Below are positions 9,100 to 13,553 of a DNA stretch of 64,000 nt, in pieces (the first letter of the stretch is position 1; each line of letters starts with the position of its first letter). The notes beneath the pieces are model-generated. The model was not told the origin of the DNA. It did not search any database and was given only the letters and a program-made list of their open reading frames with translations. The DNA comes from Escherichia coli (GTDB taxonomy: Bacteria > Pseudomonadota > Gammaproteobacteria > Enterobacterales > Enterobacteriaceae). Location: assembly GCF_003334315.1 (NCBI RefSeq), contig NZ_QOWR01000022.1. One strand, written 5' to 3'. The translations under genes were made by a program, and so were the position numbers.

Positions 9100-10086
9100 G
9101 TGACCAGGACCAACCTCATCACCGGTTTTCTCGGCAGCGGGAAAACCACGTCGATTCTTCATCTGTTAGCCCATAAAGATCCCAACGAAAAATGGGCGGT
9201 ACTGGTTAATGAATTTGGGGAAGTCGGAATTGATGGTGCTTTGCTCGCCGATAGCGGCGCATTGCTGAAAGAGATCCCCGGCGGCTGCATGTGCTGCGTT
9301 AATGGTTTACCCATGCAGGTAGGGTTGAATACCTTACTGCGTCAGGGAAAACCAGACCGCTTGTTGATAGAGCCGACCGGGCTGGGCCATCCGAAACAGA
9401 TCCTCGATCTGTTAACCGCACCAGTCTATGAACCGTGGATAGATCTGCGCGCCACCTTGTGCATTCTCGATCCGCGCTTGCTGCTGGACGAAAAAAGCGC
9501 CAGCAATGAAAACTTCCGTGACCAGCTGGCTGCCGCAGACATCATTGTCGCCAATAAATCCGACCGTACGACGCCCGAAAGTGAGCAAGCGCTACAGCGT
9601 TGGTGGCAGCAAAATGGTGGCGATCGACAATTAATTCACAGTGAGCATGGGAAAGTTGACGGTCATCTTCTGGATTTGCCGCGTCGCAATTTAGCCGAGT
9701 TGCCCGCCAGCGCCGCGCATTCTCATCAGCATGTCGTGAAAAAAGGGTTAGCAGCGTTAAGCCTGCCAGAGCATCAACGCTGGCGTCGCAGTCTGAACAG
9801 CGGGCAAGGATATCAGGCCTGCGGCTGGATATTCGACGCTGATACGGTATTCGACACCATTGGCATTCTGGAATGGGCGCGACTTGCACCGGTGGAACGC
9901 GTCAAAGGCGTGCTGCGTATTCCCGAAGGGCTGGTGCGAATCAACCGTCAGGGCGATGACCTGCACATTGAAACGCAAAACGTTGCGCCACCGGACAGCC
10001 GTATTGAGCTGATTTCCAGCAGCGAAGCTGACTGGAATGCCTTGCAGAGCGCGCTGTTGAAGCTTCGTTTAGCGACTACCGCGTAA
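9100..10086 (+). CDS. yeiR: Zinc-binding GTPase YeiR (CobW/COG0523 family)
   Basis: 328-aa ORF with P-loop GFLGSGKTT, a GCMCC motif and a His-rich stretch; GTG start. Confidence 0.9.
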   Translation: MTRTNLITGFLGSGKTTSILHLLAHKDPNEKWAVLVNEFGEVGIDGALLADSGALLKEIPGGCMCCVNGLPMQVGLNTLLRQGKPDRLLIEPTGLGHPKQILDLLTAPVYEPWIDLRATLCILDPRLLLDEKSASNENFRDQLAAADIIVANKSDRTTPESEQALQRWWQQNGGDRQLIHSEHGKVDGHLLDLPRRNLAELPASAAHSHQHVVKKGLAALSLPEHQRWRRSLNSGQGYQACGWIFDADTVFDTIGILEWARLAPVERVKGVLRIPEGLVRINRQGDDLHIETQNVAPPDSRIELISSSEADWNALQSALLKLRLATTA

Positions 10087-10124
10087 GGTTGCCTGCGTTT
10101 TTCAGTAAGATAATTAGAGAAAAT

Positions 10125-10838
10125 ATGATTAAAAATTTGCCGCAAATAGTGTTGTTGAATATTGTCGGCCTCGCGCTGTTTCTTTCCTGGTATATCCCCG
10201 TTAATCATGGATTCTGGTTGCCGATTGATGCGGATATTTTTTATTTCTTTAATCAGAAACTGGTCGAAAGTAAGGCCTTTTTGTGGCTGGTTGCATTGAC
10301 CAACAATCGCGCCTTCGACGGTTGTTCACTGCTGGCGATGGGTATGTTGATGCTGAGTTTCTGGCTGAAAGAAAACGCCCCTGGCAGACGACGTATCGTG
10401 ATTATTGGTCTGGTCATGCTATTAACTGCAGTGGTATTAAACCAGCTGGGTCAGGCATTAATTCCTGTAAAACGGGCCAGCCCAACATTGACTTTTACCG
10501 ATATTAACCGCGTCAGCGAACTGCTCTCTGTTCCCACGAAAGATGCCTCACGAGATAGCTTTCCCGGCGATCACGGCATGATGCTGCTTATTTTTTCGGC
10601 ATTCATGTGGCGTTATTTCGGCAAAGTTGCAGGCCTTATCGCCCTTATTATTTTTGTGGTTTTTGCATTTCCCAGAGTAATGATTGGCGCACACTGGTTT
10701 ACTGACATCATTGTCGGTTCGATGACCGTGATATTGATCGGTTTGCCCTGGGTGTTGCTGACGCCATTAAGTGATCGATTAATCACCTTTTTTGACAAAT
10801 CACTACCAGGAAAAAACAAACATTTCCAAAACAAATAA
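10125..10838 (+). CDS. lpxT: Lipid A 1-diphosphate synthase (undecaprenyl-pyrophosphate phosphotransferase)
   Basis: 237-aa PAP2-family membrane protein starting MIKNLPQIVLLNIVGL... Confidence 0.85.
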   Translation: MIKNLPQIVLLNIVGLALFLSWYIPVNHGFWLPIDADIFYFFNQKLVESKAFLWLVALTNNRAFDGCSLLAMGMLMLSFWLKENAPGRRRIVIIGLVMLLTAVVLNQLGQALIPVKRASPTLTFTDINRVSELLSVPTKDASRDSFPGDHGMMLLIFSAFMWRYFGKVAGLIALIIFVVFAFPRVMIGAHWFTDIIVGSMTVILIGLPWVLLTPLSDRLITFFDKSLPGKNKHFQNK

Positions 10839-11249
10839 CTCACAGTAATTAACATCATCAGGGTTATTTTTATAGTGAGGATAATCCTGATGATGCGCAC
10901 CGTGCTTTCATCTATCGAACGCAAAAATCATTCTCTAAGTAAATGAATGGATTGCATGCGTTTCACTCAATTGTACTTTAATTGACCAACCCCGCTTATT
11001 AACTTTCTGTATCACTTTTTCTTATAAAAAATCATGTAAAACCGCTCGCCAAGACCGCACCAATCGGGTAATCTCGAACTCGTTTTGCCTCGGCGGTAGA
11101 TTATCCTCACAGCATATAATTTTGTGCGTTAGTCCACAGATTTGGCCTTAAGGAATTGTTTCAACATGCCCAGGTAATTAGTCTCGTGTCGCTTGGCATT
11201 TTTTTATAACGATATTTGTCGTTAAGGACTTCAAGGGAAAACAAACAAC

Positions 11250-11816
11250 ATGGTCAAATCTCAACCGATTTTGAGATATATCTTGCGCGGGATTCCCGCG
11301 ATTGCAGTAGCGGTTCTGCTTTCTGCATGTAGTGCAAATAACACCGCAAAGAATATGCATCCTGAGACACGTGCAGTGGGTAGTGAAACATCATCACTGC
11401 AAGCTTCTCAGGATGAATTTGAAAACCTGGTTCGTAATGTCGACGTAAAATCGCGAATTATGGATCAGTATGCTGACTGGAAAGGCGTACGTTATCGTCT
11501 GGGCGGCAGCACTAAAAAAGGTATCGATTGTTCTGGTTTCGTACAGCGTACATTCCGTGAGCAATTTGGCTTAGAACTTCCGCGTTCGACTTACGAACAG
11601 CAGGAAATGGGTAAATCTGTTTCCCGCAGTAATTTGCGTACGGGTGATTTAGTTCTGTTCCGTGCCGGTTCAACGGGACGCCATGTCGGTATTTATATCG
11701 GCAACAATCAGTTTGTCCATGCTTCCACCAGCAGTGGTGTTATTATTTCCAGCATGAATGAACCGTACTGGAAGAAGCGTTACAACGAAGCACGCCGGGT
11801 TCTCAGCCGCAGCTAA
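11250..11816 (+). CDS. mepS: Peptidoglycan DD-endopeptidase/LD-carboxypeptidase (NlpC/P60 lipoprotein)
   Basis: 188-aa ORF with a lipoprotein signal (LLSAC) and the NlpC/P60 motif (DCSGFVQ...H). Confidence 0.93.
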
Positions 11817-11863
11817 TAAACCGTTTGGATGCAATCCCTTGGCTATCCTGACGAGTTAACTGA

Positions 11864-11892
11864 AAGCACTGCTTAGGCAGTGCTTTTTTGTT
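11864..11892 (+). terminator. Rho-independent terminator after mepS
   Basis: Hairpin aaagcactgc-ttag-gcagtgcttt followed by a T-run. Confidence 0.65.
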
Positions 11893-11996
11893 TTCATTCA
11901 TCAGAGAAAATGATGTTTCCGCGTCTTGATCCAGGCTATAGTCCGGTCATTGTTATCTTTTAAATGTTGTCGTAATTTCAGGAAATTAACGGAATC

Positions 11997-13553
11997 ATGT
12001 TCATACGCGCTCCCAATTTTGGACGTAAGCTCCTGCTTACCTGCATTGTTGCAGGCGTAATGATTGCGATACTGGTGAGTTGCCTTCAGTTTTTAGTGGC
12101 CTGGCATAAGCACGAAGTCAAATACGACACACTGATTACCGACGTACAAAAGTATCTCGATACCTATTTTGCCGACCTGAAATCCACTACTGACCGGCTC
12201 CAGCCGCTGACCTTAGATACCTGCCAGCAAGCTAACCCCGAACTGACCGCCCGCGCAGCGTTTAGCATGAATGTCCGAACGTTTGTGCTGGTGAAAGATA
12301 AAAAAACATTCTGTTCATCTGCGACCGGTGAGATGGACATTCCACTCAATGAATTGATTCCGGCGCTCGACATTAATAAAAACGTCGATATGGCGATCTT
12401 ACCCGGCACGCCGATGGTGCCGAACAAACCCGCAATCGTCATCTGGTATCGCAACCCTTTGCTGAAAAATAGCGGCGTCTTTGCCGCTCTGAATCTCAAC
12501 CTGACGCCTTCACTCTTTTATAGTTCACGGCAGGAAGATTACGATGGCGTCGCCCTCATTATTGGCAATACTGCGCTATCTACCTTTTCTTCACGTTTGA
12601 TGAACGTTAACGAATTAACCGACATGCCAGTCCGTGAAACTAAAATTGCGGGCATTCCTCTGACCGTTCGGCTTTATGCAGATGACTGGACATGGAACGA
12701 TGTGTGGTACGCATTTTTACTGGGCGGCATGAGTGGAACTGTCGTTGGCCTGCTCTGCTATTACCTGATGAGCGTACGTATGCGCCCCGGCAGAGAAATC
12801 ATGACCGCCATCAAGCGCGAACAATTTTACGTGGCGTATCAACCGGTGGTGGATACACAAGCTTTGCGAGTAACGGGCCTGGAAGTACTGCTACGCTGGC
12901 GGCATCCTGTCGCGGGAGAAATTCCCCCGGATGCCTTCATTAACTTTGCCGAATCGCAAAAGATGATTGTGCCGCTGACTCAGCACCTGTTTGAGTTAAT
13001 TGCCCGCGATGCCGCAGAATTAGAAAAAGTGCTGCCGGTAGGCGTCAAATTTGGTATTAACATTGCGCCGGACCATCTGCACAGCGAAAGCTTTAAAGCA
13101 GATATCCAGAAACTGCTCACTTCCCTGCCCGCACACCATTTCCAGATTGTGCTGGAAATTACCGAGCGCGATATGTTGAAAGAGCAAGAAGCCACACAAC
13201 TCTTCGCCTGGCTGCACTCGGTCGGCGTAGAAATTGCTATTGATGACTTCGGCACCGGGCACAGCGCGCTTATCTATCTTGAGCGTTTTACGCTCGATTA
13301 TCTGAAAATTGACCGTGGATTTATCAACGCCATCGGTACGGAAACGATCACTTCCCCCGTACTTGACGCGGTGCTGACGCTGGCGAAACGCCTCAATATG
13401 CTGACGGTTGCTGAAGGGGTCGAAACGCCGGAACAGGCGCGATGGCTAAGCGAACGCGGCGTTAATTTCATGCAAGGCTACTGGATTAGCCGCCCGTTAC
13501 CGCTGGACGATTTTGTTCGCTGGCTAAAGAAACCGTATACGCCGCAGTGGTAA
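11997..13553 (+). CDS. pdeN: c-di-GMP phosphodiesterase (CSS periplasmic domain + EAL domain)
   Basis: 518-aa ORF with N-terminal TM/periplasmic region and a C-terminal EAL domain (..EVLLRW.. ..DDFGTG..); formerly rtn. Confidence 0.88.
   Translation: MFIRAPNFGRKLLLTCIVAGVMIAILVSCLQFLVAWHKHEVKYDTLITDVQKYLDTYFADLKSTTDRLQPLTLDTCQQANPELTARAAFSMNVRTFVLVKDKKTFCSSATGEMDIPLNELIPALDINKNVDMAILPGTPMVPNKPAIVIWYRNPLLKNSGVFAALNLNLTPSLFYSSRQEDYDGVALIIGNTALSTFSSRLMNVNELTDMPVRETKIAGIPLTVRLYADDWTWNDVWYAFLLGGMSGTVVGLLCYYLMSVRMRPGREIMTAIKREQFYVAYQPVVDTQALRVTGLEVLLRWRHPVAGEIPPDAFINFAESQKMIVPLTQHLFELIARDAAELEKVLPVGVKFGINIAPDHLHSESFKADIQKLLTSLPAHHFQIVLEITERDMLKEQEATQLFAWLHSVGVEIAIDDFGTGHSALIYLERFTLDYLKIDRGFINAIGTETITSPVLDAVLTLAKRLNMLTVAEGVETPEQARWLSERGVNFMQGYWISRPLPLDDFVRWLKKPYTPQW

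Follow-up and report, generated by a model that had tools for sequence, protein, structure and literature searches.

The inverted repeat located between lpxT and mepS of Escherichia coli is most probably the 3'-terminal stem-loop of the lpxT mRNA, a stem-loop lacking a U-tract, with a Rho-dependent end of transcription located downstream, trimming by exonucleases, and protection of the mRNA by the hairpin. A probability of about 0.7 is assigned to this reading. Direct support comes from the hairpin itself and its position after the stop codon, from a mapped plus-strand RNA 3' end, from the selection for pairing, and from orthologous hairpins that are followed by T-runs. From these observations we infer the Rho-dependent termination further downstream, the formation of the end by trimming, and the stabilization of the lpxT mRNA.

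The analyzed window comprises 64,000 nucleotides of E. coli DNA. Its lpxT–mepS region (10671-12071, 1401 bases) is identical to that of strain MG1655, and the window represents E. coli K-12 sequence. Positions in NC_000913.3 are obtained by adding 2,258,729 to the window positions. The following genes and signals frame the region:

10125-10838, plus strand: lpxT (RefSeq NC_000913.3 2268854-2269567)
10836-10838, plus strand: lpxT stop codon TAA, from the open reading frame and the RefSeq annotation
11250-11816, plus strand: mepS (RefSeq NC_000913.3 2269979-2270545)
11862-11887: canonical mepS terminator, flagged by the consensus terminator scan, with a Term-seq 3' end at 2270620

In the list of open reading frames, the start of lpxT was called at 10089 or 10125 and its end at 10838. 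The spacer between the two genes is 411 nt long (10839-11249), and no annotated feature was found in it in any of the E. coli records listed.

A repeat search revealed two arms of 15 nt each, located at 10853-10867 (CATCATCAGGGTTAT) and 10881-10895 (ATAATCCTGATGATG). These arms are complementary at 14 of 15 positions (93%) and separated by 13 AT-rich nucleotides (10868-10880). The inverted repeat described in the initial annotation is thus real, being longer than described there and displaced by about 1-2 nt. The exact inverted repeat of 10+10 nt has a single occurrence in the 64-kb window, and 100 shuffles yielded none. In the predicted plus-strand RNA, G.U pairs extend the arms to an unbroken stem of 20 bp, with the following parts:

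10853-10872, plus strand: 5' arm of the RNA hairpin (arm at the DNA level, 10853-10867)
10873-10875, plus strand: apical loop UAG of the predicted RNA fold
10876-10895, plus strand: 3' arm of the RNA hairpin (arm at the DNA level, 10881-10895)

The stem contains 5 G-C, 11 A-U, and 4 G.U pairs. Its energy is -24.8 kcal/mol (z = -5.49), none of 200 dinucleotide shuffles was as stable, and the fold was kept in a 101-nt context. The hairpin begins 15 nt 3' of the lpxT stop codon and lies on the lpxT coding strand. Comparison with Rfam 15 gave only chance-level matches in the window and none at the gathering threshold in six orthologous loci. The sequence AATTAAC is located just 5' of the hairpin, at 10846-10852. 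A motif ATTAAY was found at the same position in 46 of 79 loci, being kept in Escherichia, Citrobacter, Salmonella, Enterobacter, Trabulsiella, Yokenella, and Klebsiella despite the variability of the adjoining stem.

A plus-strand RNA 3' end was mapped by Term-seq at the foot of this hairpin, at NC_000913.3 2269627 (Adams et al., 2021; PMC7815308, Supplementary file 1):

10898, plus strand: mapped steady-state RNA 3' end (Term-seq 2269627), 3 nt past the last paired base

The sequence around this position reads CCTGATGATGCGC up to the end and ACCGTGCTTT after it (PMC7815308). In the published list this end is labeled "orphan", and the "primary" class is limited to 50 nt past a gene (PMC7815308). 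The label is due solely to the distance of 60 nt from the lpxT stop codon, which is above this cut-off. The end has a score of 1323 and is listed for a single condition out of three, presumably LB at OD 0.4 to judge from where it stands in the file (PMC7815308); with this score at its 3' end, lpxT is weakly expressed. No other 3' end was found in the Term-seq list on either strand in 2269550-2269599 or in 22697xx (PMC7815308), and the TERMITe tables contain no entry for this 3' end.

The known transcription starts of mepS are located far downstream of the hairpin. A start at -169 was reported for spr, the old name of mepS, with a -35 element CGCTCGCCA, a -10 element GGTAATCT, and a spacer of 17 (Mendoza-Vargas et al., 2009). 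Two promoters, P2 and P1, were described later, giving mRNAs that differ by 109 nt (Elgrably-Weiss et al., 2024; PMC10798246). These promoters are located as follows:

11046-11081, plus strand: mepS promoter P2 (-35 TCGCCA at 11046-11051, -10 TAATCT at 11069-11074, start at 11081; Mendoza-Vargas et al., 2009), in a highly conserved block and taken as the beginning of the mepS transcription unit
11156-11190, plus strand: mepS promoter P1 (start at about 11190, that is, about -60; PMC10798246), in a conserved block

The P1 start was derived from the difference of 109 nt between the long and short mRNAs. The register of P2 is confirmed by the OxyS site G146-G156, which corresponds to GGACTTCAAGG at 11226-11236 and has G at both ends. 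Relative to the mepS ATG, the hairpin extends from -397 to -355, that is, 186-228 nt upstream of the P2 start, the most distal one mapped. Since transcription of mepS starts at 11081 and at about 11190, the hairpin is upstream of both mapped starts and does not belong to the known mepS leaders. An untranslated region of 410 bp before mepS had been proposed initially; its length agrees with the 411 nt found here, but it is not a 5' UTR in this extent, the mapped starts being at -169 and about -60.

For the comparative analysis, 80 loci belonging to different species of Enterobacteriaceae were retrieved with a MepS query. The lpxT gene is located directly upstream of mepS in 79 of them. In 77 of 79 loci, a single stable hairpin was found at the same position, its center being about 381 nt before the mepS ATG. 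With the stop codons as called initially, the 80 nt that follow them gave z-scores below -2 in 69 of 80 sequences. The stop codons of some loci were mis-called and were corrected by inspection; about eight species with short spacers were affected at first. The apparent absence of the hairpin in these species was rejected for L033, L039, L044, L057, and L070, where it is present once the stop codon is corrected. Among the remaining short-spacer loci, L064 carries another hairpin, and only weak hairpins are present in L041 and L047. The length of the lpxT–mepS spacer is nearly constant, about 410-425 nt in most loci, despite the poor conservation of its upstream part.

The sequence of the stem differs between genera. 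In Escherichia, the stem is formed by CATCATCAGG and CCTGATGATG with a large apical insertion, which is lineage-specific. The Citrobacter stem is formed by CATCATCAGGGAT and ATTCCCTGATGATG, and the stem ATCAGGGATCG-TTTT-CGATCCCTGAT was found in Enterobacter, Kosakonia, Phytobacter, and Franconibacter. Salmonella, Kluyvera, Siccibacter, and Atlantibacter have unrelated stem sequences in which pairing is kept. The length of the hairpin loop varies from 3 to 13 nt across the loci. In most genera other than Escherichia, the stem has the form GGGATCG...CGATCCC, which contains two symmetric GATC (Dam) sites (for instance, at about 2107-2134 in L007, L008, L034, and L054). No GATC sites are present in the E. 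coli hairpin.

In an alignment of 42 species, changes on both sides were found in all 15 of the 15 pairs of the helix. The number of compensatory cells was 76, versus 26.9 +/- 3.9 in column shuffles (none of 500 reached 76) and 21-34 when the partners were slid by 1-3 columns. Paired cells made up 82.8% of this alignment, versus 30-48% with slid partners. The same helix was predicted independently by RNAalifold. Judging from the covariation and from the excess of paired cells over the slid and shuffled controls, the pairing is under selection across more than 40 species. For the window hairpin, the plus strand is more stable than the minus strand (-24.8 vs. -18.1), but this asymmetry was dropped as evidence for a plus-strand RNA, because the minus strand is slightly more stable across the 80 sequences (33 for plus vs. 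47 for minus). A test of plus-strand pairing based on G.U pairs was likewise uninformative across species, with the minus strand folding slightly better overall.

Of the 80 sequences compared (79 loci and the window itself), about 21, or approximately a quarter, have a T-run after the hairpin. They come, among others, from Kluyvera, Klebsiella, Cedecea, Siccibacter, and Dryocola and from some representatives of Leclercia and Lelliottia. This count missed Atlantibacter and Buttiauxella, where a T-run is located within the 3' side of the stem. No T-run follows the hairpin in Escherichia, Citrobacter, Salmonella, or most Enterobacter. In the species that have it, the hairpin with its T-run is predicted to be a textbook intrinsic terminator of lpxT. 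The presence of T-runs at orthologous hairpins thus points to a transcript-end site throughout the family.

Within E. coli, the hairpin was found in all 5426 of 5426 complete genomes as a single copy (median of one place per genome). A common variant, G10863T, affects the one position of the G.U pair. In one natural strain, 20A24 (NZ_CP147044.1, 4341398-4341518), an IS1A element is inserted inside the 3' arm, after GGATAATC, and the stem is destroyed. The hairpin is therefore dispensable for viability, at least in this isolate.

The E. coli hairpin shares only some features with canonical intrinsic terminators. It is a stem-loop located shortly after the stop codon on the coding strand; it has neither a U-tract of 7-8 nt nor a GC-rich stem. 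The 10 nt located 3' of the stem, CGCACCGTGC, contain one T, which is among the first 8 nt. The consensus terminator scan detected the mepS terminator at 11862-11887 and did not flag the hairpin. The initial view that the repeat, having no T-run, is unlikely to be a simple terminator is therefore upheld. The hairpin agrees with another class of 3' ends, characterized by a stable stem-loop directly 5' of the steady-state end, no uridine tract, and a mild excess of C over G downstream (Dar and Sorek, 2018; PMC6061677). Such ends arise when diffuse termination further 3' is followed by trimming through PNPase and RNase II (Dar and Sorek, 2018; PMC6061677). At lpxT, the mapped end is likewise located directly past the stem-loop, and the sequence downstream of it has no enrichment in U and more C than G.

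The proposed sequence of events is as follows. RNA polymerase would read through the lpxT stop codon and the hairpin, where, without a U-tract, most polymerases would probably not be released. Termination would take place further 3', most likely via Rho, in an untranslated, C-rich and G-poor stretch of about 150 nt before the mepS promoters:

10896-11045, plus strand: candidate zone of Rho loading and termination, with C prevailing over G and untranslated

The tail would then be trimmed by the 3'-to-5' exonucleases PNPase and RNase II until they are blocked by the stable hairpin. This trimming would leave an end 3 nt past the stem and shield the lpxT mRNA from further decay. The hairpin would also mark the boundary of the two transcription units, lpxT and mepS. 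The C/G ratio is 1.73 in 10896-10995 and 2.00 in 10946-11045, versus 0.94 in the lpxT coding sequence and 0.87 in that of mepS. In two 78-nt windows, those that begin at 10959 and 10979, the G content is as low as 8-9%.

Several observations count against parts of this reading. Supplementary file 2 of Adams et al. (PMC7815308) contains no Rho termination region in 22696xx-22699xx, which counts against the Rho step; the authors of that list call its Rho sites under-called (PMC7815308). The weakness of the 3' end and its presence in one of three condition lists likewise count against this step. The reading as a whole is weakened by the AU-rich stem (5 G-C pairs of 20), by the uninformative strand test, and by the natural strain with the IS1-disrupted hairpin.

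The main rival is a decayed, still partly active intrinsic terminator. On this explanation, which we regard as unlikely, the hairpin would act as a weak non-canonical terminator, perhaps aided by NusA or NusG, and 10898 would be the true release point for a fraction of the polymerases. The canonical orthologous hairpins of other genera are consistent with such a decay in E. coli, as are the precision of the 3' end, the lack of a called Rho region at the locus, and the transition states discussed by Dar and Sorek (PMC6061677). It is opposed by the presence of just one T among the 8 nt 3' of the stem, by the negative terminator scan, by the location of the end 3 nt past the stem without a U-tract to fall in, and by the small number of G-C pairs (5 of 20). 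A palindromic DNA operator for a dimeric regulator of mepS or lpxT is much less probable still. The near-perfect palindrome at the DNA level would suit it, together with the core ATCAGGGATC...GATCCCTGAT, conserved in sequence in many genera, and the about equal fold energies on both strands. However, the element lies downstream of lpxT and 186-228 nt upstream of mepS P2, a large number of distinct compensatory variants exist, and the stems of Salmonella, Kluyvera, Siccibacter, and Atlantibacter are wholly different with pairing kept. The variation in loop length (3 to 13 nt) and the RNA 3' end at the foot of the hairpin also stand against an operator; conserved pairing together with T-runs in a quarter of species is the behavior of a transcript 3'-end or terminator hairpin rather than of an operator. 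The earlier proposal that mepS expression could be affected here by a regulatory hairpin or a bound protein is thus not supported: the element is adjacent to lpxT, has an RNA 3' end at its foot, is outside the mepS leaders, and is conserved in pairing over sequence. The region proved to be both conserved and covered by a transcript, namely that of lpxT.

A promoter-like sequence overlaps the hairpin, with its -10 element at the apex, spanning the loop:

10849-10876, plus strand: promoter-like site (TTAACA at 10849-10854, 16-nt spacer, TATAGT at 10871-10876), sigma-70, 10 of 12 consensus positions

A hidden third mepS promoter at this site would start near 10883 and give a leader of about 367 nt. 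The match is the sole promoter-like one in 10000-12100, but chance matches are common in AT-rich DNA, with 4.2 expected in the same interval. Moreover, a promoter-like site was found near the hairpin in only 3 of 79 other loci, and the arrangement of TTAACA with the -10 element in only one of them (Escherichia sp. L005). Published work gives two mepS promoters only (PMC10798246), and the table of Mendoza-Vargas et al. (2009) gives only the start at -169. The site is probably fortuitous, and a promoter here is very unlikely. A small open reading frame, MMRTVLSSIERKNHSLSK (10890-10946, 18 codons), preceded by a Shine-Dalgarno sequence GAGGA at 10877-10881, was rejected as its frame is not conserved: a 1-nt indel shifts it in Escherichia sp. 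L005, and it has only 9 codons in Citrobacter. Its start and the GAGGA sequence are both sequestered in the 3' arm of the hairpin. A further explanation concerns the apical insertion of Escherichia, which contains the promoter-like sequence (TTAACA-16-TATAGT) and a segment of 12 nt, GTGAGGATAATC (10875-10886, 3' side of the hairpin), perfectly complementary to GATTATCCTCAC (11099-11110, positions +19 to +30 of the P2 mepS mRNA). A stable lpxT 3' fragment or a read-through RNA could pair with the mepS leader through this segment. By a rough estimate, 0.01-0.03 such complementarities are expected by chance in 700 nt. The complementarity is specific to E. coli proper, is partial in other Escherichia, and is probably due to chance; we consider this explanation improbable. 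If true, pairing with the mepS leader would couple lipid A phosphorylation to the expression of a peptidoglycan hydrolase. The least credible explanation is a chance palindrome or a functionless remnant of a mobile repeat (REP, ERIC, or MITE). Nothing speaks for it beyond the status of an intergenic palindrome, and it is already contradicted by the conserved position and covariation across the family, by the single copy in 5426 complete E. coli genomes, and by the lack of an Rfam match. An origin from a repeat family or mobile element was ruled out by the single copy, REP and ERIC elements being multi-copy.

The rest of the spacer contains further conserved elements. A Pho-box-like direct repeat, CTGTCAT-N4-CTGTCAY, faces mepS and is located about 15-45 nt downstream of the hairpin. 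At least 12 of 14 positions are matched in 40 of 79 species, with a fixed location at -341 to -347 from the mepS ATG; eight of the repeats are perfect. Its carriers include L009, L011, L013, L021, L027, L034, L035, and L042, and the controls (minus strand and shuffled sequences) reached at most 10-11 of 14. The repeat is decayed in E. coli (9 of 14; CTTTCATCTATCGAACGC, 10905-10922) and has 10 of 14 matches in Salmonella. Binding of PhoB to this site in E. coli was rejected, as neither mepS nor lpxT is mentioned in the E. coli PhoB ChIP-seq paper, a silence that fits the decayed box. No literature on a Pho-box-like repeat upstream of mepS was found. On sequence grounds, the repeat suggests a PhoB-dependent upstream mepS promoter, or a separate transcript, in many genera. 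Most other Enterobacteriaceae may express mepS from a PhoB-dependent third promoter located just 3' of the hairpin and lost in Escherichia. This repeat is a lead on other genera and not on the hairpin.

Apart from the position of the hairpin and two motifs, one of which is the Pho-box-like repeat, the upstream part of the spacer is poorly conserved in sequence. Family-wide conservation is very strong in the downstream part, which extends from about 10997 to 11249 and comprises P2 and P1, a conserved block 5' of P2, a small conserved hairpin, and the OxyS site. The block CACTTTCTGTATCAC-TTTTTCTTATAAAAAA (10997-11031, about -84 to -50 from the P2 start) is conserved family-wide, with hardly any variation in its T/A-rich 3' part (TTTCTTATAAAAAA). 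This block resembles a UP element combined with an upstream factor site for mepS P2. The conserved small hairpin (TAACGATATTTGTCGTTA, 11207-11224) immediately precedes the OxyS site of the short mepS leader. Two further Term-seq 3' ends are present at 11244 and 11246 (2269973 and 2269975), 4-6 nt upstream of the mepS start codon; their published scores are 0.63 for Rho and 1.3 for an intrinsic terminator (Adams et al.; PMC7815308). Together with the small hairpin, these ends could reflect an RNA of about 55 nt that originates from P1 and is either processed or derived from the 5' UTR.

With the lpxT stem-loop reading, an unannotated palindrome and an "orphan" Term-seq end are now assigned to the lpxT transcript. 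The upstream part of the lpxT–mepS spacer becomes the 3' end of lpxT and is not part of the known mepS leaders; little new biology is involved. In any engineering or deletion of this spacer, the first approximately 60 nt should be treated as belonging to the lpxT 3' end. The modest value of the result is that of a clear comparative case: depending on the genus, one and the same orthologous site is either a canonical terminator with a T-run or a hairpin without U's. This is the kind of switch suggested by Dar and Sorek, who proposed that the terminator class could change in evolution by uridine content alone (Dar and Sorek, 2018; PMC6061677).

The lpxT hairpin is an ordinary case of a U-less transcript 3' stem-loop that had not been annotated before. 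It resembles the protective stem-loops of Dar and Sorek in its position directly 5' of the end and shortly after the stop codon of a weakly expressed gene, in the lack of a uridine tract, and in the excess of C over G. It differs from them in a longer and more AU-rich stem than is typical (20 bp, 5 G-C pairs), and at lpxT the action of Rho and of trimming exonucleases is putative. With canonical intrinsic terminators it shares the location just past the stop codon and the T-runs of its orthologues in Kluyvera, Klebsiella, Cedecea, and Siccibacter; unlike them, it has no U-tract and no GC-rich stem, and its end is located 3 nt past the stem. Like the REP elements that stabilize mRNA 3' ends, it is an extragenic palindrome between co-directional genes that would be able to block 3' exonucleases. 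Protective 3' stem-loops were reportedly proposed earlier by Peters et al., for REP elements. In contrast to REP elements, the lpxT hairpin is non-repetitive, being present in one copy per genome and having no resemblance to this family.
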